The notes: generated by a model not told the origin, from the letters alone. DNA of 40,571 nucleotides from Chloroflexota bacterium (GCA_024276515.1 JAJRXB010000341.1:1-40571), one strand, 5' to 3'. Shown: positions 7,022 through 24,354, numbered from the stretch's first letter. Made by a program: numbers and translations.

Positions 7022-7439
7022 GCGCGTCTTGGCCGACACCAACCTGTTCTTGCGCTACCTGACCAACGACGTGCCGGAGCAGGCAGACGCCGTCGAGCAG
7101 TTGCTTCGCCGCGCAGCCGCCGGGGAGATGGTCCTGGTTACTAACAGCCTGGTCATCGCCGAGATTGTGTGGGCCCTGGAATCATTCTATCAACTGCCCC
7201 GAGACGACGTCAAAGACAAGGTGTTGGCGATTCTGAACACGCCCGGCCTGGAGGTCGTGGACGGGGATATGGTATTGCGAGCCATCACCTGGTATGCCGA
7301 GAAGAACGTGGACTGGATTGATGCCCACAACGCGGCCTGGTTGTTGACCCGGCAAATGAGGACGGTATACACCTTTGACCACAAACATTTTGCCCGCTTC
7401 GAGGGGATTACGGTCAAGGTCCCAGGAGAGGAAGGGTAG
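7011..7439 (+). CDS. PIN-domain (VapC-like) toxin
   Basis: ADTNLFLRYL, AE, DWIDA, TFDHKHF acidic PIN residues. Confidence 0.9.
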   Translation: MKPERVLADTNLFLRYLTNDVPEQADAVEQLLRRAAAGEMVLVTNSLVIAEIVWALESFYQLPRDDVKDKVLAILNTPGLEVVDGDMVLRAITWYAEKNVDWIDAHNAAWLLTRQMRTVYTFDHKHFARFEGITVKVPGEEG

Positions 7440-8223
7440 GGCGAACGCCCCTCAAATAGAAATTCATCACCCGATATAGCTGGCGGAATCTTTGAAAAAG
7501 AGAAAACAGCAACCTTTCCGACGGGGAGTAGTAGCGTTTCAACAAACGTTTGTGCTCCTGGCGTAAGACGTATCGATGGAGCTCGCTCTGCCCGCCGGCC
7601 GTGTATCTCACCACGACTTCTGGAATGTGCTTGTAGGCAATCTGCCTTTTCAACAGCCAGAAAAAAAAGAAGTCGTGGTCTGCTTTCAGGCGAAAAGATA
7701 GGTCAAACGCCCGCTCCAGGTAAAGGTCTCTGCTCACAAACCACGACTGCTGGCATATAGAGATCAGAAAGGCAGTGAGGCGATCAAAGGTATCGGGGAA
7801 TCTCAACACACGGCCCTGACCGTTGTCGCCGGCTCCATAGATCGGATGGCGCTGCATGGTCAAAACGTCGCCATAAAAAAAGGGCACTTCTGGGAATTTC
7901 TCGATATAATCAGCCACCGACCGCAGAACATTTTCGTGGATAAAGGTGTCCCCGGCGTTCAGAAAGCAGATGTACCTCCCCCGGCAAAGGGGCAAGGCCC
8001 GATTCATCGCATCGTAAATACCCCCGTCTGGCGCAGAAACCACAGTTGTAACCCCCAAAGCGCGCAACACGTCTACCGTGCCATCGGTCGAACCGCCGTC
8101 TTTGACCACGTATTCGTAGTCCGAAAAAGTTTGGCGATGCACGCTTTGGGCGGTGCGTCGCGCTGCGTCGGCGCAATTCAGGGTGACGGTGACGATGCTG
8201 AACAAGGGCGATTGGGGTCGCAT
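7414..8223 (-). CDS. Glycosyltransferase family 2 (WcaE-like)
   Basis: SIVTVTLN, DGGSTDG, DGGIYDAMN, FLNAGD. Confidence 0.9.
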   Translation of the reverse strand: MRPQSPLFSIVTVTLNCADAARRTAQSVHRQTFSDYEYVVKDGGSTDGTVDVLRALGVTTVVSAPDGGIYDAMNRALPLCRGRYICFLNAGDTFIHENVLRSVADYIEKFPEVPFFYGDVLTMQRHPIYGAGDNGQGRVLRFPDTFDRLTAFLISICQQSWFVSRDLYLERAFDLSFRLKADHDFFFFWLLKRQIAYKHIPEVVVRYTAGGQSELHRYVLRQEHKRLLKRYYSPSERLLFSLFQRFRQLYRVMNFYLRGVRPTLPLLGP

Positions 8224-8232
8224 AGCGTTATC

Positions 8233-9453
8233 CTACCACAGGCTTTGCTTTCTGGCGAAGGCGACCTGACGGGTGTAAACTCCCAACACCCGCTTCAAGC
8301 CGACGCGCAACAGGTGATATGGTTGATACACGGTCAGATTCCACCAATAGCGTCGTGATGAATACGCCCGGGCCGCCTGGGCAAAGGCTTCCTGGTGAGC
8401 CTGGACCGTTTGATCTACCGAAAACTTTCGGGCTTGCCGATAACCAGAGTCTATCAACCGGGTTCGCAAGGTCGCGTCGAACCAAAGCCTTTTGATAGCC
8501 CTGGCGATTTCGTCCGGCGTGGTGGGGTCAAAATAAAGGGCGGCCTCGCCCGCGACTTCCGGTAAGCTTGTGCGATTGGCTGCCGCTATCGGGCAGCCGA
8601 CGGCCATCGCTTCGACCAGGGGGATGCCAAATCCTTCGAACAGTGACGGAAATATCAACAGGCGCGCCCGACGGTACAGGTAGGCCATCTCCTCCACCGA
8701 CACGAAGCCTATTTGATGCACCAGATCGCCCACCCCATACCGGGCCGCCATCTCATTGAGTTGATACCCGCCGTTCACGTCATTCCCGGTAAAAACAGCG
8801 TTGATGGAAAGTCCTTCATGCTCTTTGAGCAACTGCATCGCTCGTAGCAGGCCGTCGTGATTCTTATGCTGCCACCGATTGGCCGGATAGAGGATAAACG
8901 TCTCTGGCAAAGGATGAGAGGGAGCTTTGGCCACTTCGGCGCTGCGATAGTATCGCTCATCAGCGCAGGGATAGGCAACCACCAGCCTATCTGGCCGCAG
9001 ACGATAGTGGTGAGCTATCGTTTGTTTTGAAAACTGTGAGATGGCGATCACCCGATCAGCCAGGTGGCTGGAGACGCGGAGATACCAGTCCCGGTAGAAT
9101 AGGTCCTGTGGCGTGAAGAACTGGGGGTAATACAAATCTTGGGTGTCGGCCAGGGTGATGACCGTAGGGATGGGCGGGAGAGGCAATGGCTGCAATCCGT
9201 TGATCGGGCTGAAGTACACGTCCAGATCGGCCAGATGTCGTCTGATCTGCCCGATATTTTGCAAAAAAACGGCGTCAGCCTGCCAGTGGTCGGTGCCAAG
9301 TTTGGCTAACTCGGGGACGTTGTGTGGAAAGTAAAAGAATACGAAGGTATCAGTCGTGTCACGGATTAACAACTCACGAAAAAGGTTGATGAAATATTGT
9401 CTCATCCCACCGATGTGGGGTTGAAGAAAATAGCAATTGACGCCGATTCTCAC
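8233..9453 (-). CDS. Glycosyltransferase family 4
   Basis: HKNH, FPSLFEGFGIPLVEAMAVG. Confidence 0.92.
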   Translation of the reverse strand: MRIGVNCYFLQPHIGGMRQYFINLFRELLIRDTTDTFVFFYFPHNVPELAKLGTDHWQADAVFLQNIGQIRRHLADLDVYFSPINGLQPLPLPPIPTVITLADTQDLYYPQFFTPQDLFYRDWYLRVSSHLADRVIAISQFSKQTIAHHYRLRPDRLVVAYPCADERYYRSAEVAKAPSHPLPETFILYPANRWQHKNHDGLLRAMQLLKEHEGLSINAVFTGNDVNGGYQLNEMAARYGVGDLVHQIGFVSVEEMAYLYRRARLLIFPSLFEGFGIPLVEAMAVGCPIAAANRTSLPEVAGEAALYFDPTTPDEIARAIKRLWFDATLRTRLIDSGYRQARKFSVDQTVQAHQEAFAQAARAYSSRRYWWNLTVYQPYHLLRVGLKRVLGVYTRQVAFARKQSLW

Positions 9454-9457
9454 AAGG

Positions 9458-10560
<1,103 letters not shown>

Positions 10561-10597
10561 GATTTGTTATGACTGATGAAAAGCAGACGTGCAAACG

Positions 10598-13072
10598 TTA
10601 ATCCTCTGTTAAAGGCTTCACGGTAATCTGGCGCAGGAGAACCAGCAGGGGGCGGGTATCCCCGTTAGGTTGTTCGAGGATGGTGGCTTCATCCAGCACG
10701 ATGAATTGAAAATCGTTGCGACCTGGTTGGAGTTCACCGATAAAAGTGAGGTCGGTTGCTTGATCAAATTGCCGGCGGGCCCTTTGCGTGCCAGCCTGGT
10801 TTTGAAGGACCACCTCGACAGTGCGCTGAGCATCTGGCCGGGCCGGCCCTGGCTCAACCTCAAATATGGCTCGAATTGCCTGGCGTTCAGTTGCCCAGAA
10901 TGTACCCCCCAATCCTTGCTCCTCACCATATCCCAGCCATAGCAAACTAGCATCGTCATAAACTTCTATTCCCCAAGGTGGTGTTTGGAGTTGTGGGTCT
11001 ATACCCACTGTTCCCGTAAGAGATGGATCTACCATTACCAGAGGATGATTTGCCGGCCCTGCCTGGCTGACACCTAATAATTTCGAAGAAGGAACCCATT
11101 CGATCCAATGGTATGCGAGGCTCAATACACGTGGATCCCCATTAAGGTTCTTGAACTGATTGCTATGCTCAATCAAAACCTTGACAAATGGTTTTGTATG
11201 GATCCGCTCAGCAGGGATAAAGAACGTAATCACCCCATCGCCAAGGGGAGCAGTTGTCGAGTCTATAAGTTCGCCATCAATCAGCAAACGCACTTCCTGA
11301 TTTTCATCGGACAGGCCATACCTGACCCACGCGCGAAATATATAGTCCTGATTTACCTCAACTGGGAATTGTAAATACAGTGACGGTCCAGCCCACCTGT
11401 GATAATAGCCAGCACTTCGCTCAAGGTTGTGAAAACCGTCGTTAGCTTGGAGAAGCTTTTCAAAGTCGCAATCCTCTACTGACAAGCGGTAATTATGCTC
11501 TTCCAACGCTCTTGTTGTGCTCAACGCCCAAATATCTGGGTCTGTAATATCAGGGAAAATGCCATCAGACTCACACATATCAAACCTAAGTACATAACTT
11601 GATATGTAACTCCGGTCTTCGAGCAGTCCTAAATCTGTACCAAAGTAGAAATCGAGAATCAATCGAAAAGAATTGACAGGCGTTATGGATGGATATAAAT
11701 ACTGTTCACCACCACCTGGCAGATAATAGGCGTTAAATATTGGCAAGGCTTCTCTTGATTTTATCCAGCCGGACCATGTCCCATGGTCTGCTTGAAGGAC
11801 AATAATCGGTGGCGTTTCGGACTGAGCAAGAATACTGTCGATGAGATCTTCTGTCAGATGGTTAACGTAAGAAAGTTGATCGGTGTACGCCTGCTTAGGT
11901 AGCCAGACGTTGCCATTTACATTTTCATAGTACTCAACCCCTGTAAAGTTGCCCTCACGATCAAATACATATGGTGGATGCGGAGCCACAATATGAGCGA
12001 AAGTGAAGGTTGGGTCTTTGATCTTGGGAACTTCTTTTAACTTACTAAACGTATCGAGGATACCTTCTCTACGATCTTTTGTAAACAGATCAAAGGCTTT
12101 GTATATGGTCGTTCCTAAAAAAACCTTAGTAAACTCACTTCTGCCGCGAAACGGATGGTTAATATCCGCCTGTTCGCTATAATTTGTGAGCCTAAACTCG
12201 GAACCAAAGTGGATCGTTGTGTATCCCAAGTCATTAAACTGTCTTGTTAAGTAGTTTTCGTGGGCCAAGAATGTTAACCTGTTGGTCTTTTCCCTGTCGC
12301 TCAACTTATCTTCTAGAACACCCAAGTTATCCAGATAATCTATATTCAAGGATGATGGAATAGACAGACTCGTTTGGGCATAGTTGCTATGACTCTCCGA
12401 GGCAACATAAAAACCGTTTGAAGTCAAGTAGTTAATAAATGCACTATTGTCGAAGTCGTAGTAATCACGTAAAACATCACCTCGAGCGTACCCATCGAGA
12501 ATAATATAATACACATCTGGCAACGCATCTAATCTAACCCGAGAGTTGAGGCTACGTCCCTTTGTTGGAGTAGGCATCTCTACCAAATGTTCTGATGCCT
12601 TAGCTTGATCAAAATAAGATTGCGCAACCGGAATCAAAGCCATCACAACTAGCACAACAGACAAGAAATTCAAATATCCATCTACCTTGGACTGTGTATT
12701 AAGTTTCCACACTGCCAGAGCGATAATAAAGACAAAGAAGATAATCCACAAAGGTAGCAAATAGTTATGTCGGGGCTCAACATTGACAAAATTAGGATCA
12801 GGAGAAATCCTCCTAAAAACTTCATCATAATAATAACCGTAGTACAAAGCAGCAAAAGCTATTGCAGTTGTAATGACTCCTGCCCTCGTGTTCGCTTTAA
12901 GAGACCAATTCACTGCTAAGTATAAAACAGCAGTTGCACCAAGGATCAAAGCTAAAGGTAAAAGGATTTCTGAAAATGCCATTAACTCAATGTTGGTAGC
13001 ATACAAGTGAAGCAGCGGATAGACGGCGAAGAGAAAGGGGTAAACAATAATCTGTCGGCGCTTAGTCTGCAT
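10598..13072 (-). CDS. Membrane-anchored alkaline-phosphatase-superfamily (LtaS/sulfatase-like) protein with C-terminal accessory domains
   Basis: ~5 N-terminal TM helices; IILDGYAR, YAQTSLS, APHPPY, ADHG metal-site motifs. Confidence 0.8.
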   Translation of the reverse strand: MQTKRRQIIVYPFLFAVYPLLHLYATNIELMAFSEILLPLALILGATAVLYLAVNWSLKANTRAGVITTAIAFAALYYGYYYDEVFRRISPDPNFVNVEPRHNYLLPLWIIFFVFIIALAVWKLNTQSKVDGYLNFLSVVLVVMALIPVAQSYFDQAKASEHLVEMPTPTKGRSLNSRVRLDALPDVYYIILDGYARGDVLRDYYDFDNSAFINYLTSNGFYVASESHSNYAQTSLSIPSSLNIDYLDNLGVLEDKLSDREKTNRLTFLAHENYLTRQFNDLGYTTIHFGSEFRLTNYSEQADINHPFRGRSEFTKVFLGTTIYKAFDLFTKDRREGILDTFSKLKEVPKIKDPTFTFAHIVAPHPPYVFDREGNFTGVEYYENVNGNVWLPKQAYTDQLSYVNHLTEDLIDSILAQSETPPIIVLQADHGTWSGWIKSREALPIFNAYYLPGGGEQYLYPSITPVNSFRLILDFYFGTDLGLLEDRSYISSYVLRFDMCESDGIFPDITDPDIWALSTTRALEEHNYRLSVEDCDFEKLLQANDGFHNLERSAGYYHRWAGPSLYLQFPVEVNQDYIFRAWVRYGLSDENQEVRLLIDGELIDSTTAPLGDGVITFFIPAERIHTKPFVKVLIEHSNQFKNLNGDPRVLSLAYHWIEWVPSSKLLGVSQAGPANHPLVMVDPSLTGTVGIDPQLQTPPWGIEVYDDASLLWLGYGEEQGLGGTFWATERQAIRAIFEVEPGPARPDAQRTVEVVLQNQAGTQRARRQFDQATDLTFIGELQPGRNDFQFIVLDEATILEQPNGDTRPLLVLLRQITVKPLTED

Positions 13073-14456
13073 AGCGTTTTTCTCTCATCAAATATAAGAC
13101 TCTCGAGGAATCCTTAATAGGTTCAGTACGTTGAATGGTAAAATAATGACCGAAGGCCACTTCAAAACCTGGCTGGGTGTAGTTGGGAAAAATATCATCC
13201 CGAGTCGCCAGCAGTCTTTGTACCTTCGGGTCCCCTTTGGGCACGAACTCAATGATGAGCCAATCACATAACTCAGCCAGAAAACCGGCGACCATATCAA
13301 GGGGGGTGTTGTTCGAGATGACCAGGTGATGGATGAGGGCCAGGGCCAGAATCAGATCGACAGGTCCGCGTTCTACAAAAGACATTCGTTCTTGGGTGTT
13401 CCACCCGATAGCAGGACTGGGGTTTGTTAAGTCAAGCAGTAACGGCAATAGGTTGGTTTCACCATTTTTTACTGTTTGACGGAAACTGATATCTACGGCC
13501 CCTGGGTCGACGTCCCATGCAACGGTTGGAATCCCTTGATGGCTGGCAATCCGGCTGAACAAACCCGTGTTGGCGCCCAAGTCCCATACTGTTTTGGGGT
13601 TGGCAATCTTAATGAAATCTGCTACGAGCTGTCGCTTGTGCTTAATTCCTTCTGCGCTGTAGCTGTCATCCTGGTAGTAATTCGCCCAGGCAGTTTTCTT
13701 AGGGTTCCAATGAAGCTTCTTGACACCGGTTTCCAGGTTGTCGAGCAGCCCTAGCAACGCTTTTCGGCTTATGCCCCGTTTGGCCGTTGTGCCGTTCACT
13801 GTTTTGTCTTTGAAATACTGCTGACTTCTGGCGTGGAGATGAATGTGTAAAAGCAAAGGCAAGCTGAAGTAACTACGGACAGGTAGTAATTTGGCCGCCA
13901 AATCGAGCGGGATGCCATCAATGAACACCCGCAGCAGTTGATTGAGACGGATATCTTTATATGCCATCAGAGCGAGTGGAGCGAGAAAATGCTGACAGAA
14001 TTGGCGGTAAGGTACCCAAACTGTCCCCTCCCGATAATGCTCAAAGGAGAGCGTGTCTATGAGGATCGGTTTTCCATTTAAGAACTGGATATTGTAGGCG
14101 CTGCTATCCTTTAGTGACATATTAAACTCAAGCGCTATTCTCTGCACTTCGAGTGTCGCCAGCGCCGCCGCTTTTAGTTGGCTGAAGCTCCATTCATAGG
14201 GGTATGAGATAAACTCTATAGGTTGCGGCTGAATCACCTTGTAGGCATCGCCAGACCGAGCCAATTCAAGACTGGCTTCAGTATGGGGAATCAGTAGCCC
14301 AGCCTCCACGAGCCGCTGATATAAGCCCGAACTGATCAGATGATCGTAGTTGTCCTTGTAGACCACGTTGATTTGGCGATAAAGCAAGCCGTTGTGTCGA
14401 AAGATGAAGCCACTTGGGTCTCGGAAGGAAGCCAAGATCCTTCGATCGTTAGTCAC
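13062..14456 (-). CDS. NoeA-like protein: N-terminal kinase-like region plus class I SAM methyltransferase
   Basis: SFRDPSG, ISYPYEWSF, LKDSSAYNI...IDTLSF, WDLGANTG SAM motif, LALIHHL. Confidence 0.8.
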   Translation of the reverse strand: MTNDRRILASFRDPSGFIFRHNGLLYRQINVVYKDNYDHLISSGLYQRLVEAGLLIPHTEASLELARSGDAYKVIQPQPIEFISYPYEWSFSQLKAAALATLEVQRIALEFNMSLKDSSAYNIQFLNGKPILIDTLSFEHYREGTVWVPYRQFCQHFLAPLALMAYKDIRLNQLLRVFIDGIPLDLAAKLLPVRSYFSLPLLLHIHLHARSQQYFKDKTVNGTTAKRGISRKALLGLLDNLETGVKKLHWNPKKTAWANYYQDDSYSAEGIKHKRQLVADFIKIANPKTVWDLGANTGLFSRIASHQGIPTVAWDVDPGAVDISFRQTVKNGETNLLPLLLDLTNPSPAIGWNTQERMSFVERGPVDLILALALIHHLVISNNTPLDMVAGFLAELCDWLIIEFVPKGDPKVQRLLATRDDIFPNYTQPGFEVAFGHYFTIQRTEPIKDSSRVLYLMREKRYAD

Positions 14457-14495
14457 CTTGTTCTTGATTCTCCATTCTCAAAATGTAGCGAGTTG

Positions 14496-14708
14496 CTATT
14501 GCAGCGATTCGTCGGTAGATTCGTCTGATCGCCCGAAAATGCCTTTGATTTTACCCCAGAACACTTTTGCGAAGAATAGGGTGCTCAATAGAGCACCAAA
14601 GAGCAGTTGTATAATCAAACTACCGCTTCCGGGGTCAAGATATGACAGAATCAATCTGCCAAATAGAATTCCTCCAGCAATTTTAGAAGCTTTTCGAAGT
14701 AAACCCAT
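14496..14708 (-). CDS. Small membrane protein with YLDPGSGS motif (70 aa)
   Basis: AGGAG RBS before ATG 14708; YLDPGSGSLIIQLL followed by a TM helix and basic patch. Confidence 0.7.
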   Translation of the reverse strand: MGLLRKASKIAGGILFGRLILSYLDPGSGSLIIQLLFGALLSTLFFAKVFWGKIKGIFGRSDESTDESLQ

Positions 14709-14891
14709 CTTAACTCTCCTTTTCTGCTGTGCTATTGTAGGTATTACCAACTTTACATCTATGTAGTTCTAAGCATTTTGGGCGATTCCACGATGTTTTG
14801 ACGGATAGCAGGCAGCACCTATCACCTAATCGCTGACACCTCAAACAGTCGGAATGATCAGAGGTCAAGGATGACCAGTAGCTATCCTCTA

Positions 14892-16031
14892 CTACGCAAG
14901 TTCTTCATACACATCTAACACCCCCCGCGCCATCTTCTCCCACGAGAAAAGTTTAGATCGAGCCAGGGCACGCCGTTGCAAATCGGCGTGGAGAGTGCTA
15001 TCGTTTTGCAGGCGAAGCATAGCCTCGGCCATTGCTTCAACATCCTCAGGGTCTACACTGAGCGCCGCATCGCCAGCGATTTCTGGCAGGCTGGTCACAT
15101 TGGAGGTAATCACCGCCGCGCCCAGGCTCATCGCTTCCAGCACCGGCATGCCAAACCCTTCAAACAAAGCCGGGTACAAAAAGGCGAAACAATGACGGTA
15201 GAGCCAGTGCAGTTGAGCGTCGTTGACATACCCCAACAGGTGTACGTCGTTTTGAATGCCCAGGCCGGCGATATAATCTGGCAAGTCTTCCTCCAGCCAG
15301 CCTTTACCCCCGGCCACTGCCAGCGGTAAGTCGGTCAACCCTTCGTGACGCAGGCGGGCGTAGGCTTGCAACAGGCGACGCAGGTTTTTGCGCGGCTCCA
15401 GCGTGCCCACCGACAGCCAAAATTCTCCTGCAGGCAACTTTTTGACCTGCCCGGCCTTTTCATCAACATCGTCTGTCAGCGAGAAGCGGCTGGCCGGGTG
15501 TAGTACCTGCACCCGCTCGGCCGGATAGTGGGGAAAGATCTCCAAAAAGTGACGTCTAGAATATTCAGAGATGGAGATGATCATATCCGCACGCAAACTG
15601 GCCTCAAATACCCCGTTAAAACAGATCAGCCGATTTGCCTCAGTGGTAAATTCTGGATGCTCTACATATACCAAATCATACAACGTGTAAACCAGGCGGG
15701 CATGGCGCAAGCCCTTTGGGCAAAAATAGTTATTGGCGTGGACGACATCGGGCCTGCCCAATTGATCTTCAAAACCTGGGGCGGGGTTTGACCAGAAAAC
15801 CCTGGCCTGGCTATGGGAGAACTCGGTGAAGCGCCGCTCGAAATTAGCCTGCCGGGTTTGAAAGGTGTTTCGTTTATGATCGGCATCCCAAAAATCGGGA
15901 CCAAAATTAGAATACAGGATATAATAGTTATCGTGATCAAGCCGGGCCAGGTGTTGAATTAACGAGTAGGCAACATAACCACAGCCGGCCTTATTCGACC
16001 CGGTTTGGCTTACATCAAAGCCAATTCTCAT
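14892..16031 (-). CDS. Glycosyltransferase family 4
   Basis: GTLEPRKN, EGFGMPVLEAMSLG; start MRIGFD overlaps the upstream stop (ATGA). Confidence 0.92.
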   Translation of the reverse strand: MRIGFDVSQTGSNKAGCGYVAYSLIQHLARLDHDNYYILYSNFGPDFWDADHKRNTFQTRQANFERRFTEFSHSQARVFWSNPAPGFEDQLGRPDVVHANNYFCPKGLRHARLVYTLYDLVYVEHPEFTTEANRLICFNGVFEASLRADMIISISEYSRRHFLEIFPHYPAERVQVLHPASRFSLTDDVDEKAGQVKKLPAGEFWLSVGTLEPRKNLRRLLQAYARLRHEGLTDLPLAVAGGKGWLEEDLPDYIAGLGIQNDVHLLGYVNDAQLHWLYRHCFAFLYPALFEGFGMPVLEAMSLGAAVITSNVTSLPEIAGDAALSVDPEDVEAMAEAMLRLQNDSTLHADLQRRALARSKLFSWEKMARGVLDVYEELA

Positions 16032-16930
16032 CGGTTTAGCCACCCCCGCAACGTATGATACAGGGGATCGACTACCCAGCCCCACATCGTCTGCATAGCA
16101 TCAAGCGGGACGTAATGATACCAACGAAGAAAGGAGATGGTGGAAACGGAGATAAGTAAAGTCATATATTTGATTTTTTCCGCCGGTATCTGGAGGTTGT
16201 AGTCCCTGGCATCCACAACAGCGTGGGCATAGTTAAAAATCCAGCGCTGGGGCGCTTGGCCCAGCCGCTTTTTCGTCATCTCAATGATCTCACGATGCAC
16301 AGCCACACGGCTGCCCAGCGTTTTATTGGCATCGTATAGCCGCGAACCGGCCAGCACGCGATTCAGACGGACGAATTTTGTGTCGGCGCCCAGACGCAGC
16401 CAATATTCGTAATCCATACAGTAGCGCAAGGTGGGATCAAGCAAGCCCTTTGTTTCCACCACCCGCCGTCTGAAGAAAACGGCCGGCTGGCATAGATAGC
16501 ACACATCCTTGAGTCGCTCATAGTCCCAATCTTCGGTGTAATAAGGTTCTATGACCGCGCCATACTCGTCAATGTGATTGGCGTCACCGTAGACCACTTC
16601 TACGGCCGGGTTCTGTTCAAAAAAGTCCAGTACAAAGCGTAAAGTGCCCGGATAGTAAATATCGTCCGAATTTAACCAGCCAATCACATCGCCAGATGTA
16701 TTTAAGATGCCTTTGTTGACTGCATCGGCCTGTCCTCCGTCTGGCTCTGAAATCCAGCGCAGTTGGCCTTCGTACCGACGCAGAATATCTATGGTTTCAT
16801 CAGTGCTACCCCCATCGCAAACCATATATTCCAGGTCGGGGATACCCTGGGACAAGACGCTCTGAATGGTACGCTCGATGAAGTGGCCTTGATTGTAGGA
16901 AGGTGTAATCACACTGATGGTCAACGACAT
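16028..16930 (-). CDS. Glycosyltransferase family 2
   Basis: SVITPSYNQG, DGGSTD, WLNSDD, CMDYEYWLR. Confidence 0.92.
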   Translation of the reverse strand: MSLTISVITPSYNQGHFIERTIQSVLSQGIPDLEYMVCDGGSTDETIDILRRYEGQLRWISEPDGGQADAVNKGILNTSGDVIGWLNSDDIYYPGTLRFVLDFFEQNPAVEVVYGDANHIDEYGAVIEPYYTEDWDYERLKDVCYLCQPAVFFRRRVVETKGLLDPTLRYCMDYEYWLRLGADTKFVRLNRVLAGSRLYDANKTLGSRVAVHREIIEMTKKRLGQAPQRWIFNYAHAVVDARDYNLQIPAEKIKYMTLLISVSTISFLRWYHYVPLDAMQTMWGWVVDPLYHTLRGWLNR

Positions 16931-16939
16931 TGTAACGTT

Positions 16940-18607
16940 TCAATCCTCGGCCGACCGAAAAAGTATCTGCAGGGAACCATCAGGAGCAACAATTTGGCAG
17001 GATTGGCACTGGCAACTTAGCCAACGCTCATCACTCGAGTTCATATGTTCGCTGGGCTTGAAAACAGGCGAGGCGTGTAAAATAATATGCCCACCCTCAG
17101 GCGAAAGAGGGAGGCGAAGAGTGATCGTTTGTCCTCGCGGTAGGCTCCATTGATCCATCGAAGTCGTACTATTTTCGCACCGGAGAGTGATTTTGCGATG
17201 AGGTAACCAGGCGGGCGCAGCCAACTTTAGTTCCAAAATACGTGCATCATCGTGAGCGCTGTAGCTAATTTCCACCTCCTGACCAAGCCAGCCGTCCGCG
17301 AAAACACCCGCCAGCCCATCGGTGATGGTTTTGCTCTTTCGCAAAGTCTGGTCAAATATCTCCAAATAATAACGAACCATATCTTCCTGCCGGAATTTGG
17401 CCAACTGTTGATAACCCCGTTGTACCAAATCCTCAGCCAGTTGCGGTTGATTAAGCAGTGCCTCTATAGCCTGTACAATTGCTGTTGGCTTGCGAGGATC
17501 AAAGTATAACGCGGCTTCACCTCCAATCTCCGGCAAGCTGGCTACGTTGCTGCACAATACCGGTTTGCCAAAGGCAAAAGCTTCCAGGAGCGGAATGCCA
17601 AACCCCTCGTACAAAGAAGGATAAATCATAAACTGGCAACCCCGAAATACAGCAGCCAATTGCTCATCAGATAGATAACCCAAGAAGTGAACTCTTTGCT
17701 TTAGTCCCATCGCTTCCACAGTGGCGCGCAGTTCTTTCTCCGGTTGAGCCAGCGCGCCGCTAAAAACCAAGTCCAGTTTAAGGCCTGGGTTGCGCCGGAC
17801 CAGGATATTGTAAGCCGTCAACAACATCCGATGATTCTTGTGAGGCCAGAAGTTGGCCGGATAAAACATATAGGGCTGTGTGCCAATTTGAAGTTCCGAT
17901 AGCGTATCCGGTGGTGGAACAACTTCACTTAAGCGGGAGTGAATACAAATATGCACCGTATGGGTTCGTTCGGGCACAACATCAAGGTGAGTCACCAGGG
18001 TTTGGCGAGTGTATTCTGAGATGCAAATCATAACATCGGCCCGCCGACTCGATTGTTCCAGAATGGCATCTCTACCGGCAACCTCATGCGGGTCAAAAAA
18101 TTGGGGATAGATACGATGTTGCAAATCGTAAACAATGGAAACAACTGGGATGCCAAGTTCAGCATAGGTTGGCGCTGTAAAAGGGCAAAACAACAGATCA
18201 ACCCCGTGCGCCCGCAATAACCGATTGGGCACGTGAGGATGAGGGGGCAGCCTGGGCACGCGACCTAATCTCTGTTTGAGTTGTCTGGCAGGTGGCAATA
18301 GCAGAGAGATGATCCGCGAGGGCAACACCTGGCGTAGGCGGTGTAACATTTGGTCAAGGCGCTCGTAGTTTCCAACGGCAGCCTGTTTAGTTGGCGGGGC
18401 CTCCCCAGGCAGCACGCACAATCGTTCGAAGCCTGGCCCATCCAATGCGGCCAGTTCGTGGTGGTTCCAGCCGGCCGTAAGCAACAAAAAGTCATAGGGA
18501 TGAGTCAGGCGCTGGAAATCGGCCAAAAGTTGCAAGACCAGAAGTTTAGCCCCTCCATTTTCGCCCCCCGGACGAAGCGGGGTTAAGTCTATGGCAATGC
18601 GTGGCAT
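16940..18607 (-). CDS. Glycosyltransferase family 4 with C-terminal accessory domain
   Basis: YPANFWPHKNH, PSLYEGFGIPLLEA; extra ~130 aa (GVFADGW...SDERWLS). Confidence 0.9.
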   Translation of the reverse strand: MPRIAIDLTPLRPGGENGGAKLLVLQLLADFQRLTHPYDFLLLTAGWNHHELAALDGPGFERLCVLPGEAPPTKQAAVGNYERLDQMLHRLRQVLPSRIISLLLPPARQLKQRLGRVPRLPPHPHVPNRLLRAHGVDLLFCPFTAPTYAELGIPVVSIVYDLQHRIYPQFFDPHEVAGRDAILEQSSRRADVMICISEYTRQTLVTHLDVVPERTHTVHICIHSRLSEVVPPPDTLSELQIGTQPYMFYPANFWPHKNHRMLLTAYNILVRRNPGLKLDLVFSGALAQPEKELRATVEAMGLKQRVHFLGYLSDEQLAAVFRGCQFMIYPSLYEGFGIPLLEAFAFGKPVLCSNVASLPEIGGEAALYFDPRKPTAIVQAIEALLNQPQLAEDLVQRGYQQLAKFRQEDMVRYYLEIFDQTLRKSKTITDGLAGVFADGWLGQEVEISYSAHDDARILELKLAAPAWLPHRKITLRCENSTTSMDQWSLPRGQTITLRLPLSPEGGHIILHASPVFKPSEHMNSSDERWLSCQCQSCQIVAPDGSLQILFRSAED

Positions 18608-18636
18608 AGGTTACACAATTTCCTTCAGTCAAGAGG

Positions 18637-19917
18637 TTAAATCAACCGCAAACGGCGCAGCAGTCTAACGGGTGGCCGATTCAACGTTCGTTCTTGTGAT
18701 TGAATAATCTGTTCTTGCGATTGGATAACTTCCAGGCGGGCAGCACGGTCGGCCTCTGACTTCTGTAAAAGTTGAGTGAGCTTCTCAATCTGATCCAGCC
18801 GTGCTGCCCGGTCAGCTTCTGACTCTTGTAAACGCTGGGTTAGCGCTTTAATCTGATCCAGTCGGGCGGCGCGGTCAGCTTCGCTAGCTTGCAACCTCTC
18901 ACTCAGTTGATGGATGACCTTCAGCCGAGCGGCACGGTCGGCTTCGGCTTCTTGCCATTTAGACCGCAATATTTCTATCTCTTCTCTTAGTTCCATAATC
19001 TTATTTATGCGACTTCTACCAATACGGTCTCTAATTTCTACAGCTTTTGCCTCAGAAGGCGCTTGAAGCCCCAACAATTGCAGAGAATCAATCACATCAC
19101 TGTATCCCAGGCGGCGAAAAATATCAAAGCCTAATAACTCTATAAGTTGCTGCAATTCTGGCAGCGTAAATGTTTCTACCCATCTGCCAATAGATTGGGA
19201 ATGCACCAAGTGGGTGGTTAAGGCTTTTTTGTCACCCATCGTCGAAGCGTTGTGCCTTGCTATTAAGGTTTGGTTCTGCCCGTAATCCAGCATAGTTGCT
19301 TCAAATGGCACCCCCAGCCAGTCACAAATATCGGTCAACGTTTCTTGGGGTGTCTCTACCAACTTCTCATACTGAACCTCAAGCTTGTACGGTGAAGGGA
19401 GCTCAAAGTAGGCAGCCAGCTTAAACAAGCCAACTGCAAAATCAAAAGATAATGAAGTAATTTTTTGCCCCAAAATTATTTCAGGGCCAGCACCCCATGT
19501 TTTCTTATACGAGGAAGCTACATCAAGCGGGTTACGTTTTAACCAAATCTTCTGGGCTTTGGGAAAAAGCTGGTCAAGCCAAGGCAGAATATGGTAGTAT
19601 CGAGGCGTTTTGTCAACAAAAATTGTTTTACCCGCCGTTTGCAAATGGCTGTTGTAGACTGTAATGGCAAAAGCCCGGGAAGCTTCAATCAATGTTTCAT
19701 CTGATACAAACTCTTTAGTGCCAATTGCAGCCAATTCGTCATCAACAATGTTCTCGACAGAGCATGGTTGTGTAAGTGCGGCCAATTTGAGCAAGAACCA
19801 GGGCTCTGGAGGACAAAGTATATCCGAATGGCTACCCAGCAACAGACTCAAAAGCGTAGAGCCAGACCGGGGTAGTGACAGCAAAAAAACTAGATTTTCA
19901 CCTTTATTGTAAATCAT
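18637..19917 (-). CDS. PAPS-dependent sulfotransferase with C-terminal coiled-coil repeats
   Basis: 5'-PSB motif LPRSGSTLL, DKTP, 3'-PB motif RNPLDVASS, YEKLV; four EADRAARL repeats; amphipathic basic C-terminus. Confidence 0.9.
   Translation of the reverse strand: MIYNKGENLVFLLSLPRSGSTLLSLLLGSHSDILCPPEPWFLLKLAALTQPCSVENIVDDELAAIGTKEFVSDETLIEASRAFAITVYNSHLQTAGKTIFVDKTPRYYHILPWLDQLFPKAQKIWLKRNPLDVASSYKKTWGAGPEIILGQKITSLSFDFAVGLFKLAAYFELPSPYKLEVQYEKLVETPQETLTDICDWLGVPFEATMLDYGQNQTLIARHNASTMGDKKALTTHLVHSQSIGRWVETFTLPELQQLIELLGFDIFRRLGYSDVIDSLQLLGLQAPSEAKAVEIRDRIGRSRINKIMELREEIEILRSKWQEAEADRAARLKVIHQLSERLQASEADRAARLDQIKALTQRLQESEADRAARLDQIEKLTQLLQKSEADRAARLEVIQSQEQIIQSQERTLNRPPVRLLRRLRLI
18706..18957 (-). 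repeat. Four 63-bp (21-aa) intragenic tandem repeats
   Basis: EADRAARL cores begin at plus-strand positions 18733, 18796, 18859 and 18922 (period 63). Confidence 0.88.
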
Positions 19918-19944
19918 TGCTTACTAAACATACATCTATTTGAG

Positions 19945-21144
19945 TTACCAAGATATACTACGCAGGTGGGCGCGAAATTCACGAGGGTCGGAGATGTCGT
20001 GATAGTAGAAACCTTTACCAAGCTTAATATGGAGCTCCGTGAGTGTGTTAAGTCGAACCGGTGGAAATTTGAGTACGAGCTTATGTAGTCCTGGCTGTAA
20101 AGCAAAAGTCTTCTCCTTTACCATATCACCAAGTGAAACCGATCCAGTAAGTTGCCATCCTGAATCATTCGGGTTTTCAGGGACCATCATTTCGATAACA
20201 AGAGATTGGCAACTAGTTGGCAAGCTGACCAAGAATTTGGATTCTTTTTTCATCCAGCCGTCAGAAAAAGCGCCTGTTAGATAAACTCTTCCGCTGGTAA
20301 TATCGTCCTGCTGAACGACGAATAGCAGTGGTCTTCTGTCAGCTTTAACAATTACTTTCCCAAAATGATCCCTTTGACTATCTTCAAAGAATTCGATCAT
20401 CTTATCTTCAGCTAATTCCCAATGTGACCAAAAGACTACATACTTGTATGATTTGAATTGGTCGTATCGGCAGGTTGGGTCCAAGTGACAGTAATCTGGT
20501 GGAATTTGGTTTACCTTGGCTGCAATAGGAATAGTACTCTTCTCATCGCCCAAGATGAAACAATAATCATCACTGTATCTTGTGTGAGCAAACCAACCAT
20601 AGATCTGAAATTCTAATATGTCATTACGATTGAGCATATTCTTGAGTGGATACCGTGAGGCAAAATCAGATGCAATCGAGCGATTGAATACATATTGGGG
20701 AACAACTCCGTAAAGATAATCGATATTGCATCCAACAAATAGTTAAGATTGTTTTCTCCAGCGCAGCGGAGGCTCGTTTTCGCCCCAAGGACGATAAAAC
20801 CAGACTGGCTTTCCACAACGCAGAAAATCCTCATCAGAAGTGGGTTGGATAAATAGAAAATCCGAGTCCATAATGCAGAAATATTCTGTTGTTGCCACTT
20901 GATAGGCAAGCATTTTTAAGTAAGGTTGTTGACTGTAAGCAGTTGTACCTACTAACTCAGGATAATCATCTCTATAGAGCAAAGTTGTATTTTGGGGTAG
21001 CCGAATTTGCTCAAGCAAATACTGTTCCGACCGGCTCGCAAAGATAAACAACTTGTTTTTTGATTGATAGTATAAATCGTAACTGGCCAGGAAGTGTCTT
21101 AGCAGTTTAATGTCGGGGGCATAGGTGACAACCACAATATCCAT
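19945..21144 (-). pseudogene. GT-A-like (DUF6492-like) putative glycosyltransferase interrupted by one in-frame TAA at 20743-20745
   Basis: ORFs 20743..21144 and 19945..20637 share a frame; the 35 codons between them are open (LFVGCNIDYLYGVVPQY...); DSD motif, QQPYLK. Confidence 0.75.
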
Positions 21145-21167
21145 CCAAATAGACCTCTCTTATATGG

Positions 21168-22478
21168 CTATTCTCGATAGTACTCAACGTCGCAGGGCAT
21201 ATTAAATTCGCCCAGAAAAGGGGCCCGGTCTCTGTTATAATCCCAAAGGATAGAAATAGGGATTCGTGGCGTCTTATGAAAAGGAGTCCCGGTATTTGGC
21301 TTATGGCCTTCTTGGGTACCAACGACAAACTCCATAGTATAATCACCAGCTTGTAAGCCGAGTTCGAATTCAAAGTTGCAGAAGACCTGCTCATGCATTC
21401 CTAACAGAGGAGGAACAACGCCCTTAGTATAAGCCCCACCGCAGAATACTAAATGGTTAAACCTGTTATGTACGCCAACAGTAACGCTTGGGCGAACATT
21501 GTCACTGAAACTCTCTATGAGTAACTGTACACGCATTCGCTCCCCCATTTTGAAACTGAGGGTGTCCTTAGCCTGGGAGTTTTGAAAACGCACTCCCAAA
21601 ATTTTTGCTCGCTCAGTTTCGCTTTTGGCGGTGGGTGTGTCGTTAACCCATTGGCACTTTGACAGGAATTCAACCGTATCACGTGGATGACCGTCTATGC
21701 TTGACTCGAGATGATAACTATCAATAACGGTTCTGGTTGCACCAGCTTGAAGGGCTTGATATCTTAACACTGCGTTAACACTTTCTCCAGAGTAAATCAT
21801 TTCGCCCTTATCTAAAAGAATTGACTGTCGACATAGGGTCTGTATGGTGTTCATATTATGTGAAACTATCAGTAGTGTTGTACCATTCGCACGCAGCTTT
21901 TCCATCCGCGTGCTGCATTTCTGTTGAAAAAAAATATCACCCACAGCCAGTGCCTCGTCCACAATTAAGATATCCGGCTCAACACATGCCTGCACCGCAA
22001 AAGCCAGCCGCACAAACATGCCGCTAGAGTACAACTTCATCGGCTGGTCCATAAACTCGCCGATGTCGGCAAAGGCAGCGATCTCATCAAAGCGTTCGTC
22101 CATCTCCTCTCGGCTAAAGCCCAAAATAGCACCGTTGAGGTACACGTTCTCTCGCCCGGTAAACTCGGGGTTAAAGCCACTGCCAAGTTCCAGCAGGGCC
22201 CCCACCCGGCCATTGACCTGCACTTCGCCCTCGGTCGGTTGCAGTGTGCCGGCGATGATCTGCAACAGGGTGCTCTTGCCGGCTCCGTTACGACCGATAA
22301 TACCCACCATTTCTCCCCGTCGCACCTCAAAACTTACACCGCGCAGTGCCCAAAACTCGCGGGCGTAGTTTTTGCCGAAACGCCAAAACAAACTCTGCTT
22401 CAGCCGGTCTTGCGGCCGGTCGTAAAGCAGGTAGCGTTTGCTCACGTCCCGCACCGAAATGGCAATGTCATCGCTCAT
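21168..22478 (-). CDS. wzt: Polysaccharide ABC transporter ATP-binding protein with C-terminal (Wzt_C-like) domain
   Basis: GRNGAGKST, YSSGMFVRLAF, DEALAVGD; ~190-aa C-terminal extension. Confidence 0.93.
   Translation of the reverse strand: MSDDIAISVRDVSKRYLLYDRPQDRLKQSLFWRFGKNYAREFWALRGVSFEVRRGEMVGIIGRNGAGKSTLLQIIAGTLQPTEGEVQVNGRVGALLELGSGFNPEFTGRENVYLNGAILGFSREEMDERFDEIAAFADIGEFMDQPMKLYSSGMFVRLAFAVQACVEPDILIVDEALAVGDIFFQQKCSTRMEKLRANGTTLLIVSHNMNTIQTLCRQSILLDKGEMIYSGESVNAVLRYQALQAGATRTVIDSYHLESSIDGHPRDTVEFLSKCQWVNDTPTAKSETERAKILGVRFQNSQAKDTLSFKMGERMRVQLLIESFSDNVRPSVTVGVHNRFNHLVFCGGAYTKGVVPPLLGMHEQVFCNFEFELGLQAGDYTMEFVVGTQEGHKPNTGTPFHKTPRIPISILWDYNRDRAPFLGEFNMPCDVEYYRE
22424..22478 (-). repeat. 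55-bp direct repeat copy 1 (5' end of wzt)
   Basis: 52/55 identical to 23257-23311. Confidence 0.9.
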
Positions 22479-22486
22479 TATCTGAA

Positions 22487-22912
22487 TTATGAATCCTCTT
22501 GTCCAAGCGAGATACGAAGCCCAGGTGGCAAAAGTTCAAGGACAAAGTCCCAAACGGCTTGCGCTGTGGTCAGGGCGTCCACCGCTTCTTGCAGTGAAAT
22601 CTCCATTACCTCGCCAGGGTAGCGAATTTCCACCGCAAAGGGTGACAGAGCTTCCACGCTATCGCGCAAGGATACCAGGTCAGGCTCCTCTGCTTCGCAC
22701 AGGTCCAGCAAGTAGGGCAAGCTATGCACTTTTTCAAAAGGAACAGCTTTCCACACCAGAAAAGCCTTAAGCGTCTTTTCCACCGCCTGCTGGCAATGAA
22801 ACATCGCCGTGTCCAAGACTGGAGGTCGATGCTCTACCAGGATCTGCGCCGACAACAAGTCGTTTCTTGCTTTCTGAAGCCATTCTGTAATTTCATCCAC
22901 CTGGGGATTCAT
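22487..22912 (-). CDS. HEPN domain protein
   Basis: WLQKARNDL, FHCQQAVEKTLKA, HSL, RYPG; paired with the upstream MNT gene. Confidence 0.9.
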   Translation of the reverse strand: MNPQVDEITEWLQKARNDLLSAQILVEHRPPVLDTAMFHCQQAVEKTLKAFLVWKAVPFEKVHSLPYLLDLCEAEEPDLVSLRDSVEALSPFAVEIRYPGEVMEISLQEAVDALTTAQAVWDFVLELLPPGLRISLGQEDS

Positions 22913-23225
22913 AGAGTATCCTTCCTCTTTCCTCTACGATCCGCTCAAGGGAACTGATCCAGTGACGACGGCGCTCAAATTCCGCGTCAGTGACCACTTT
23001 GACCTCAATTGGCACACGGAGCCCCCGCAGTGCACGATAAACCTCCACTGCTCTTTTGTGCGGAGGTAATAAAGAATGATCAGTCACAATAAACAAATCT
23101 ACGTCACTGTTCTCATAGGGCTGGCCGTAAGCGTGAGAACCATAGAGGTAAATCCTTTTAGGCTGCAGCGCCGCTACAATCCGTCGAACGATTTCATCCA
23201 GTACTTCACTGTCTAAGGTCTTCAT
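22893..23225 (-). CDS. Minimal nucleotidyltransferase (MNT)
   Basis: LYGSHAYG...SDVDL. Confidence 0.9.
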   Translation of the reverse strand: MKTLDSEVLDEIVRRIVAALQPKRIYLYGSHAYGQPYENSDVDLFIVTDHSLLPPHKRAVEVYRALRGLRVPIEVKVVTDAEFERRRHWISSLERIVEERGRILYESPGG

Positions 23226-23251
23226 AAGAATCTCACTCCCGCCCGGTAAGA

Positions 23252-23311
23252 TCAGGAAAGCAGGTAGCGTTTGCTCACGCCCCGCACCGAAATGGCAATG
23301 TCATCATTCAT
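23252..23311 (-). pseudogene. Truncated duplicate of the wzt 5' end (MNDDIAISVRGVSKRYLLS*)
   Basis: Direct repeat of 22424-22478 ending in TGA at 23252-23254. Confidence 0.8.
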
Positions 23312-23362
23312 CGTTTTTCCAGATAGCTCGCAAATTTGGCAGGATTTACCTGTTCTCGCTCA

Positions 23363-23455
23363 TCAAGTCGGCCAGTAACCCGAGGTCAACGAGGTGTCAC
23401 TGACCACGGGCATACGTCAGACCGTCCTCAAGCTCTTCTCCAACGTCGGCCCAAC
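23363..23455 (-). pseudogene. Remnant junction of a UPF0175/DUF3368-like TA pair
   Basis: Minus strand reads ELGRR..EELEDGLTYARGQ* overlapping MPVVSDTS, recalled as typical termini of these families. Confidence 0.5.
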
Positions 23456-23914
23456 TCACAAAGCCTCGTCTATCATATCTGGATGTTCCCTCAACCAGCG
23501 TCTGTAGGCACTCAGAATTTGTTCCAGGTCGCCCAACTGATGGGCACAGATCCGATACAGCTCTTCCTGGGAAACCTCGTGATAGAAATGCACCAGGCGA
23601 TTGCGATAGCCGGCCAGAATGCGCAGCAGGTCTGCCTCTTCATCCTGCAAAACGCTATGCTCCTGCAATCTCTGCGCGATTTCCTTGTATTCACTCACTC
23701 CCAGACCAAAACCCCTGGTCAGAATGTGTCGCCCTATATCCAGCAGGGCTTCCAGGCCACGCCGCAGGCAGGACTCTGCCGTCCAGATATTCCTTCTGTC
23801 CGCGAAAAACGTCTGATCATCGTCCAGAGGAAGGGATCTGATGTCATCGAGCGTTGCCTCTACCCAGGCGATGCGGTCCACCACCACCCGCCTGGAGATC
23901 CGACCTGGTGTCAC
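23456..23914 (-). CDS. DUF86/HepT-like HEPN ribonuclease
   Basis: GYRNRLVHFY (RX4H); GTGA overlap with the MNT gene. Confidence 0.9.
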   Translation of the reverse strand: MTPGRISRRVVVDRIAWVEATLDDIRSLPLDDDQTFFADRRNIWTAESCLRRGLEALLDIGRHILTRGFGLGVSEYKEIAQRLQEHSVLQDEEADLLRILAGYRNRLVHFYHEVSQEELYRICAHQLGDLEQILSAYRRWLREHPDMIDEAL

Positions 23915-24354
23915 CGTTTCTCTCCCAAAATCAAAGCCATCCGTTCGCGCTCCAGGGGGATCAGATCGCCAGCCCGCCGCAAGACGTACAGATCGTATTC
24001 GTCGGCCTCGTGCTCATCTCGAGCGTACAGACGTTCGCCGCGCACGACGTTGGCCGCCAGGAAGGGGTCGGCCTCTGGCAAAGAGATCACGTCCACCCGC
24101 TCTACGTCAAAGAGATCCTCCAACGCGATTGCCAGGCGAACTTTTTCCTCCACAGAAAGGGGCATCCCGGGTATGGGTCTGACTCCAACGTCCACATCGG
24201 ACGGCCCGCGCCTGAAGGCTTGCCCCTCTTCTTTCACCCACGCCAATGCTTCTTTGGCCCGGCTGCCAAAAACGTATAAGGTAGCCACGTGGAACATTTG
24301 ACAGATGCGCGCCAGCGCTTCACGACGAGACTCGGCCCCTCTGATCTCTCCCAT
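23911..24354 (-). CDS. MntA-like nucleotidyltransferase antitoxin
   Basis: YVFGSRA...SDVDVGV, RVDVISL; ATG 24354 after GGAG. Confidence 0.88.
   Translation of the reverse strand: MGEIRGAESRREALARICQMFHVATLYVFGSRAKEALAWVKEEGQAFRRGPSDVDVGVRPIPGMPLSVEEKVRLAIALEDLFDVERVDVISLPEADPFLAANVVRGERLYARDEHEADEYDLYVLRRAGDLIPLERERMALILGEKR

Follow-up and report, generated by a model that had tools for sequence, protein, structure and literature searches.

A 40,571-nucleotide stretch of DNA from a Chloroflexota bacterium (GCA_024276515.1 JAJRXB010000341.1:1-40571), referred to here as the window, carries at positions 10598-14708 a cassette of three consecutive, co-oriented minus-strand open reading frames (ORFs) encoding proteins of 70, 464, and 824 aa. 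The cassette belongs to the NoeA/NoeB module, which is known but biochemically uncharacterized, and comprises in addition a so far unnamed microprotein with the motif YLDPGSGS. In the direction of transcription, the microprotein ORF comes first (14496..14708, with an ATG start at 14708 and an AGGAG upstream at normal spacing; the longest frame, of 84 aa, spans 14496..14750 and starts with TTG at 14750), followed by the ORF of the 464-aa NoeA-like protein (13062..14456, start GTG) and that of the 824-aa NoeB-like protein (10598..13072, start ATG). A first-pass annotation of this DNA had described a co-oriented, AT-rich unit whose last two genes overlap by 11 bp, and the ORF listing of the window agrees: the overlap between the 824-aa and 464-aa genes lies at 13062-13072, and the guanine-plus-cytosine (GC) content of the three genes is 0.43-0.49 (microprotein 0.427, 464-aa gene 0.490, 824-aa gene 0.444), compared with 0.57 (0.566) for the whole window. 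Because each of them has many homologs, the cassette ORFs are, judged by homology, genuine genes and not chance frames. A promoter and terminator scan of 10300-15100 gave no signal above that of shuffled sequence.

Conservation of the Gene Neighborhood

A genome scan for the 464-aa protein yielded 593 confirmed loci, 80 of which (L001-L080) were kept for neighborhood counts. The kept loci are from Chloroflexota, Planctomycetota, Desulfobacterota, Omnitrophota, Aminicenantes, Clostridia, Chlamydiota, candidate phyla, and archaeal metagenome-assembled genomes (MAGs), and their NoeA-like proteins share 54-61% identity with that of the window. Identity of this degree, kept across very distant phyla, suggests that the protein is under strong constraint and has often been transferred horizontally. 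MAGs titled Methanomicrobia and Methanobacteriota are among these loci.

When small ORFs were read from the DNA, 76 of the 80 loci had a microprotein homolog that precedes the NoeA-like gene in the same orientation and is often translationally coupled to it; in the other four (L029, L036, L047, L049) the NoeA-like gene lies no more than 180 nt from a contig end. The microprotein is a constant partner of the NoeA-like gene. A NoeB-like gene directly follows the NoeA-like gene in 34 of the 72 loci with room for it, often with a 4-nt overlap, and occurs within 6 kb in 43 of the 72, while three more downstream genes among the 80 loci carry PF00884 according to Pfam. The gene order is microprotein, NoeB-like, NoeA-like in L034 and L042, and tandem NoeB-like paralogs are present in L043, L058, and L070.

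Two samples of genomes were used for counts at the genome level, namely 151 genomes of the window's own phylum and 121 genomes of the phylum of genome G151. In the own-phylum sample, 11 of 151 genomes encode a NoeA-like protein, and all 11 have both an adjacent microprotein gene and NoeB-like genes, the latter in up to six copies per genome, several of them divergently adjacent. Among the other 140 genomes, a NoeB-like gene was found in one (G076), with a microprotein gene directly upstream of it. Of the 14 matches in the second sample, 12 represent NoeA-like genes of full length, and 10 of these 12 have a neighboring microprotein gene; NoeB-like genes at E ≤ 1e-25, a threshold that may miss divergent forms such as Sinorhizobium meliloti NoeB, are present in 8 of the 12 genomes with NoeA-like genes and in 1 of the 107 without a NoeA-like match. 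The three genes form a conserved unit, and the conserved co-occurrence expected in the first-pass annotation is borne out both in the 80 loci and in the genome counts. A small protein and an alkaline-phosphatase-fold protein are also the neighbors that characterize the NoeA/Lani_1194 family.

A protein of ~330-360 aa without a Pfam family is encoded directly 3′ of the NoeA-like gene in eight loci (L027, L032, L036, L039, L045, L059, L064, L077), mostly titled Chloroflexota or Anaerolineae MAGs. The L027 version, the sole one translated, has two hydrophobic segments. DNA topoisomerase I is encoded directly upstream of the microprotein gene in seven of these eight loci, L036 being cut at the contig edge.

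The NoeA-like Protein

By its full-length tblastn match to S. meliloti noeA, the 464-aa protein is a NoeA homolog and a member of the Lani_1194 family. In a search of plasmids, noeA of S. meliloti pSymA matched with ~37% identity over 97% of the query (E = 1e-66), in keeping with the NoeA-like label of the first-pass annotation, and 57 Sinorhizobium records matched with 36.8-37.1% identity and are labeled noeA wherever they are annotated. S. meliloti NoeA scored E = 8.7e-112 against the hidden Markov model (HMM) of the family. More than 8000 homologs were scored; the best 120 of them are full length, 61-100% identical and mostly unnamed, or else named "SAM-dependent methyltransferase" (SAM, S-adenosylmethionine) or "PrmA." Pfam and NCBIfam gave sub-threshold methyltransferase matches alone, at residues 277-384, and a sequence comparison with solved structures gave one chance-level match (E = 0.85). 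The protein has no transmembrane (TM) segment and no coiled coil, and ends at residue 464.

The C-terminal domain (residues ~255-464; 13062..13694, minus strand) is a class I SAM-dependent methyltransferase domain, as in the NoeA/Lani_1194 family. Its motif I, DLGANTG, stands within the SAM motif VWDLGANTG, in which D292, G294, and G298 are invariant, and His376 and His377, located after strand β4, are invariant as well. Matches of the full-length model in Foldseek and VIA-align are confined to this domain. The sequence TNPSP was considered as an NPPY-like N-methyltransferase motif and dropped, since it follows strand β3 and not β4 in the model.

The N-terminal domain (residues ~1-250; 13707..14456, minus strand) was delimited from conservation, the AlphaFold2 (AF2) model, and section 8 of PMC9758233. 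Its kinase-like stretch reads SLKDSSAYNIQF..GKPILIDT, and in an alignment of 30 homologs R27, D117, N122, and D134 are invariant while K116 and I133 are kept in at least 90%. The first-pass annotation had pointed to a kinase-like K-D-x4-N...ID pattern in this region, and its order and spacing fit (D to N, 5; N to D, 12); the cited section of PMC9758233 calls the domain an atypical kinase. The order of elements in the AF2 model (β-strands, helix, hinge, long helix, strand, K-D-x4-N, two strands, I-D, strand, helical lobe) appears to be that of a protein-kinase-like core. An hhalign comparison of the domain with 11 Hanks kinase domains of the same genome was not significant (probability 0.2%, E = 0.29) and aligned just this stretch, in the expected register, with D117 on the HRD Asp, N122 on the Asn, and D134 on the DFG Asp. 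The profile of the domain had no sequence match among solved structures, Pfam at E ≤ 10 was empty for it, Atlas returned unnamed clusters alone, and a Kdo/WaaP family search for kinase comparison returned no loci.

The NoeB-like Protein

The 824-aa protein is composed of an N-terminal membrane domain (residues 1-155; 12608..13072), an alkaline-phosphatase-superfamily domain (residues 185-495; 11588..12520), and a C-terminal extension (residues 500-824; 10598..11575), all on the minus strand. The membrane domain is conserved in the family alignment and shows four to five hydrophobic segments within residues 8-155 in a hydropathy scan. The Pfam Sulfatase family PF00884 matches residues 185-434 (E = 3.2e-10) and is the sole Pfam match. 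The protein has the multi-pass membrane domain followed by a PF00884-type domain that defines the EptA/LtaS/BcsG type of architecture.

The first-pass annotation had noted alkaline-phosphatase metal motifs without the formylglycine motif, and a Thr in YAQTSLS where LtaS/EptA-type phosphotransferases place their nucleophile. Both observations hold: D186, D193, H360, H365, and G431 are invariant in 32 of 32 aligned members, D429 is kept in 31 and H430 in 30, a regular-expression search for [CS]xPxR over the whole protein found none, and position 234 is Thr in 27 of the 32 members and Ser in 5. Thr234 is by its position the candidate nucleophile, no solved chain having matched in sequence for comparison; both the single sequence and the NoeB-like profile gave zero matches against solved structures. 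With Sulfatase as the only Pfam match and a sulfotransferase gene in the surrounding cluster, the protein could be taken for a hydrolytic sulfatase that trims the sulfated glycan of the neighboring sulfotransferase, in which case the cassette would not be a functional unit. We regard this as very improbable in view of the missing formylglycine motif, the Thr or Ser at the nucleophile-like position, the multi-pass membrane domain as in phosphotransferases, the conserved linkage to the other two cassette genes, and the sulfotransferase itself, a homolog of which occurs in 0 of the 80 related loci.

Most of the 2385 homologs of the 824-aa protein are ~500-540 aa long and only the nearest relatives reach 790-980 aa, which makes the C-terminal 325 residues a lineage-specific extension. 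No Pfam family matches the extension at E ≤ 10, and the best Atlas score, 0.86 for "Phosphoglycerol transferase I / DUF7024," is a lead only. GC content is 0.496 in the extension (10598-11572) versus 0.41 in the conserved N-terminal 500 codons (11573-13072); the higher value hints that the extension is of a different origin from the rest of the gene. S. meliloti NoeB is a distant relative with motifs in register (blastp E = 8e-5; NoeB-like HMM E = 7e-10).

The Microprotein and Its Copies Apart From NoeA

A first homolog search with the microprotein returned 16 proteins. The family search, made among representatives, gave at least 1561 clusters at E ≤ 1e-3, nearly all of them stand-alone proteins of 50-130 aa. 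The top match of the latter search, P0257 (899 aa, matched in 13 stretches), was rejected as an unrelated low-complexity repeat protein. No Pfam or NCBIfam model matches the microprotein, and the string "YLDPG" was not found in a full-text literature search.

The anatomy of the family was derived from 73 locus-encoded members aligned with the window protein (74 sequences). The window protein consists of an N-region, MGLLRKASKIAGGILFGRLILS, the motif YLDPGSGS at residues 23-30, a TM helix at ~28-51, a basic stretch, KVFWGKIKGIFGR, and an acidic tail. The N-region is usually 15-35 aa long, although some members have just 1-9 residues before the Tyr, such as that of L022 with M-YLDPGTGS. Of the 62 N-regions of at least 15 aa, 47 have Ala and 7 have Gly at position −1, and 43 have Ala, Val, or Ser at position −3, placing the family motif Y[LI]DPG[ST]GS directly after a signal-peptidase-I-like site. 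Tyr23, Asp25, Pro26, Ser30, and Gln34 (window numbering) are invariant in the 74 sequences. The motif leads into a hydrophobic helix and then into the basic stretch K-x-x-W-[KR]-K-I-K; the tail that ends the protein is variable and often acidic. Taken with the positive-inside rule, the signal-peptidase-I-like site, the helix, and the basic tail indicate a putatively processed, single-pass protein with a predicted N-out/C-in topology and the motif at the outer face of the membrane. The nodL-noeA-noeB operon of S. meliloti contains such a gene as well: between nodL and noeA, and overlapping the latter, lies a 71-aa gene reading AHA-YLDPGTGS, which matches the microprotein profile with E = 2.3e-19. 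A complex prediction for the microprotein with the 464-aa protein scored 0.29 relative to a mark of 0.32, which speaks neither for nor against binding.

Microprotein genes are also found without NoeA. All five such copies of the own-phylum sample adjoin alkaline-phosphatase-superfamily genes: those of L083, L084, and L085 adjoin NoeB-like genes (E = 1e-48 to 1e-96), and that of L086 and the weak-matching one of L087 adjoin PF01663 and PF00884 genes. In the sample of the G151 phylum, the microprotein of G246:C57 adjoins a NoeB-like gene. The L111 microprotein adjoins a PF00884 gene, and L110 has no alkaline-phosphatase-superfamily neighbor among the neighbors checked; three further copies (G191:C28, G182:C4, and G269:C288) were left out. 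L109 (793-3357, minus strand) encodes a fusion that joins a microprotein segment (E = 4.9e-8) with a PF01663 domain (E = 5.7e-36), in the order signal-peptide-like region, YIDPG motif, TM helix, basic stretch, second hydrophobic segment, and PF01663 phosphodiesterase/pyrophosphatase domain. Upstream of the L109 fusion lies a gene for a Sulfatase+TPR protein.

Since it is linked to each of the two partners separately, the microprotein forms the hub of the unit. The first-pass annotation had taken it for an accessory subunit or a carrier; strict adjacency and the one fusion support an accessory membrane subunit, and the carrier part finds no support. A small gene immediately 5′ of a two-domain modifying enzyme, often translationally coupled to it and with a conserved motif containing Ser/Thr, might also encode a precursor peptide resembling ribosomally synthesized and post-translationally modified peptides, or a signal, which the kinase/methyltransferase modifies before export. 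That is hardly to be expected of a protein whose core is invariant and not variable, whose motif precedes a hydrophobic helix and a positive-inside tail of the kind usual in membrane anchors and is predicted to lie outside while the enzyme is cytoplasmic, and which exists in copies without the enzyme and in one copy fused to an alkaline-phosphatase-type enzyme.

The NoeA-free copies also bear on the role of the 464-aa protein. As described in the cited part of PMC8892547, BcsF is a small single-pass protein that recruits cytosolic BcsE and contacts BcsG, a phosphotransferase with five TM segments and an alkaline-phosphatase domain that decorates an exported glycan. By analogy, the NoeB-like enzyme may use an ordinary phospholipid donor, such as phosphatidylethanolamine or phosphatidylglycerol, and the microprotein may recruit a cytoplasmic protein that controls or times the transferase without making its substrate. 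The architecture is the same as in BcsE/BcsF/BcsG, where BcsF binds both partners (PMC8892547, same part), and the microprotein and NoeB-like pairs without NoeA in L083 and L085 suggest that the transferase can work without the kinase/methyltransferase. We nevertheless consider this unlikely, as the catalytic residues of the kinase-like and methyltransferase domains are invariant across phyla, which argues for catalysis rather than a degenerate regulator like BcsE, and no sensory domain was seen in the Pfam and family scans.

The Surrounding Glycan Cluster

The cassette is enclosed by a glycan-assembly cluster on the same strand (7414..27370, minus), assigned from Pfam, which contains Wzm (24377-25207), Wzt with a Wzt_C domain (21168-22478), a 426-aa sulfotransferase (18637-19917; PF13469, E = 6e-30), and an NAD-dependent sugar epimerase/reductase (9458-10537), all on the minus strand, together with a UDP-N-acetylglucosamine 2-epimerase and three family GT4 and two family GT2 glycosyltransferases. 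The C-terminal tail of the sulfotransferase (residues ~294-406) weakly matches coiled-coil-type models and, given a Wzm/Wzt cluster with Wzt_C, the enzyme is another candidate for the role of a ruler-type capping enzyme that terminates chains. The 230-aa ORF between the sulfotransferase and Wzt (19945-20637, minus strand) has no Pfam match at E ≤ 10 and no homolog in any of the 80 related loci.

Between Wzm and Wzt there are two gene pairs of the HEPN/nucleotidyltransferase type (22487-23225, minus; 23911-24474 / 25211-25711, minus). They combine HEPN with NTP_transf_2 and Polbeta with HepT-like, and resemble toxin-antitoxin modules. At the cluster edge there is a Metallophos (calcineurin-like phosphoesterase) gene (5694-6698, minus), a homolog of which stands directly 3′ of the NoeA-like gene in L009 (7376-8311). 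A cobalamin riboswitch (RF00174) is found at 38098-38364 (minus; 54 bits, E = 8e-11).

The presence of Wzm and of Wzt with a Wzt_C domain raises the question of a terminator like WbdD, the membrane-associated, bifunctional kinase-methyltransferase that ends O-antigen chains according to the cited passages of PMC3482155. The 464-aa enzyme would then act in the cytoplasm and add a methyl phosphate cap to the non-reducing end of a lipid-linked glycan, this cap stopping elongation and being read by the Wzt C-terminal domain; the microprotein would serve as a mere anchor, and the 824-aa enzyme would be an unrelated decorator using ordinary phospholipid. The two activities would be the same as those ascribed to WbdD in these passages, and WbdD entries top the Foldseek list for the 464-aa model. 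We think this rather improbable: the domain order is reversed and there is no coiled coil, a Wzt-like ATPase lies within 6 kb in just 7 of the 80 loci, the S. meliloti nodL-noeA-noeB operon is not an O-antigen cluster, the window holds another terminator candidate in the sulfotransferase with its coiled-coil-like tail, and the strong genome-level linkage to NoeB-like genes would be left unexplained.

Proposed Function

The catalytic motifs of all three enzyme domains are intact by conservation. We tentatively read the cassette as a machine that spans the membrane and carries out phospho-modification of envelope glycans, the microprotein serving as adaptor, a reading that we hold to be possible but still short of probable; gene structure, homology, conserved residues, linkage, and fusion are observed, and topology, complex formation, and every chemical step are inferred.

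The 464-aa protein, having no TM segment, would be cytoplasmic, would need ATP and SAM, and would act at the cytoplasmic face, where, through phosphorylation and then methylation, it would most likely prepare or mark a donor or an acceptor in the inner leaflet. The 824-aa protein would work in the manner of EptA, LtaS, and BcsG, with a membrane domain, an outward alkaline-phosphatase-fold domain, and a Thr nucleophile. It would take a phospho-headgroup from a donor in the membrane and place it on a glycan that belongs to the envelope or is exported, here presumably the product of the surrounding Wzm/Wzt cluster. The microprotein would be a single-pass adaptor that presents Y[LI]DPG[ST]GS at the outer face beside the phosphotransferase and whose basic tail at the inner face could hold the kinase/methyltransferase, so that the three proteins may constitute one trans-membrane machine. 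It may thus join the 464-aa and 824-aa proteins as BcsF joins BcsE and BcsG in the cited part of PMC8892547. The several NoeB-like paralogs that often accompany a single NoeA/microprotein pair fit one shared preparation step, in which kinase and then methyltransferase would act on a membrane donor and so feed several transferases with different acceptors. The first-pass annotation had proposed that a methylated phospho-donor is made and transferred to the exported glycan; of this, the conserved unit is upheld, while the donor and the transfer stay conjectural.

Several observations weigh against this reading. All members of the NoeA and NoeB families are biochemically uncharacterized, and the kinase fold of the N-terminal domain is unconfirmed here, there being no sequence match in the Protein Data Bank and an hhalign probability of 0.2%. 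About 40% of the loci have no NoeB-like gene within 6 kb, 4 of the 12 genomes with full-length NoeA-like genes in the G151 phylum have none at E ≤ 1e-25, and G152, the genome of L016, has a microprotein and NoeA pair without a NoeB-like gene at that threshold. Because the genomes within each phylum sample are related, the counts overstate independence and represent few independent events. The PF01663 (Phosphodiest) protein of L086 (6175-7998) opens with its catalytic domain, matched from residue 3 onward, and has no signal peptide or TM segment of its own; lacking an export signal, it does not fit a simple picture in which the motif lies outside, beside the enzyme.

A bolder form of the trans-membrane machine, speculative and in our view doubtful as a whole, makes the microprotein the hub of an unrecognized class of such machines. 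The kinase/methyltransferase would assemble, at the inner leaflet, a lipid donor that carries methyl phosphate or is phosphorylated and methylated in some other way, and the processed, N-out microprotein would couple it to one or several NoeB-like transferases, which would move the headgroup onto different envelope glycans outside. If true, this would be the first chemistry for NoeA and NoeB, and would give bacteria and some archaea a periplasmic route to decorations of the methyl-phosphate type.

The NoeA/Lani_1194 family and its two conserved neighbors are already in print in the cited sections of PMC9758233. What is added here is the anatomy of the microprotein, its near-complete linkage to NoeA, its independent association and one fusion with alkaline-phosphatase-superfamily enzymes, and the three-way co-occurrence at the genome level, although part of these counts may already be contained in the neighborhood table (Table S6) of PMC9758233. 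Many bacterial phyla and some archaeal MAGs have the module, which recurs in envelope-glycan loci. A constant microprotein partner with the look of an N-out adaptor, associated with and once fused to alkaline-phosphatase-superfamily enzymes, turns a conserved neighborhood into a concrete and testable three-subunit model, and offers a name and a likely role for small ORFs in the thousands that are labeled "hypothetical" and frequently overlooked by gene callers.

Comparison With Known Systems

Like EptA/MCR, LtaS, and OpgB, the 824-aa protein combines a multi-pass domain with a Sulfatase/alkaline-phosphatase catalytic domain and appears to have Thr/Ser in place of formylglycine; unlike them, it has no detectable sequence match to any solved chain. 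To our knowledge, its extra C-terminal domain is absent from EptA/MCR, LtaS, and OpgB.

With BcsE-BcsF-BcsG, as far as these are described in the part cited above, the cassette shares a three-part layout, which we put forward as an analogy without claiming homology. BcsE is a degenerate cyclic-di-GMP-binding regulator, whereas the 464-aa protein of the window is kinase-like/methyltransferase, and we know of no YLDPGSGS motif in BcsF.

WbdD of E. coli O9a unites a kinase and a SAM methyltransferase in one cytoplasmic enzyme of an ATP-binding-cassette-transporter-dependent glycan pathway (PMC3482155, cited passages), as the 464-aa protein would do. The top Foldseek entry for the 464-aa model, 4azs, aligns over 213 columns with 16% identity (E = 9.5e-8), and the likeness to WbdD, at ~16-18% identity, is limited to the methyltransferase domain. 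WbdD has the order methyltransferase, kinase, coiled coil (PMC3482155; legend to Fig. 6D of PMC9758233), while the window protein has the two domains reversed and lacks the coiled coil, and so does not share the WbdD-family architecture. The cited passages of PMC3482155 and PMC9758233 describe no microprotein or NoeB-like partner for WbdD.

The closest counterparts are the Lani_1194 loci and the S. meliloti operon. In the cited sections of PMC9758233, Krysinska et al. (2022) define the Lani_1194 family bioinformatically as homologous to NoeA and leave its function open; a literature search found the name in that single publication. There the family is described as having a novel atypical kinase domain, in which Arg replaces K72 of protein kinase A (PKA) and the equivalents of D166, N171, and D184 are kept, and a class I methyltransferase fused to it in 94% of ~two thousand homologs. 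Among 816 neighborhoods, the small hypothetical protein Lani_1193 is present in 65% and Lani_1195, an EptA/YejM-like NoeB homolog, in 38%; EptA and YejM are the best templates for the Legionella neighbor protein in the supplement of the same paper. The linkage of the microprotein in 76 of 80 loci found here, with ORFs read from the DNA, compares with that 65%. The genes noeA and noeB themselves have been known as host-range nodulation genes since 1995, without a biochemical function, as cited in the relevant passages of PMC9758233 and PMC9048898.

The 464-aa protein of the window has the same R, D, N, and D residues and the same class I methyltransferase as NoeA/Lani_1194, and its neighbors, a small protein and an alkaline-phosphatase-fold protein, are those of the Lani_1194 loci. 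Compared with S. meliloti NoeB, a 460-aa ORF with one N-terminal hydrophobic segment, the NoeB-like protein of the window has a multi-pass domain and a 325-aa extension, and the context differs as well, being a Wzm/Wzt glycan cluster in the window and a nod operon in S. meliloti. The microprotein gene is present in both.

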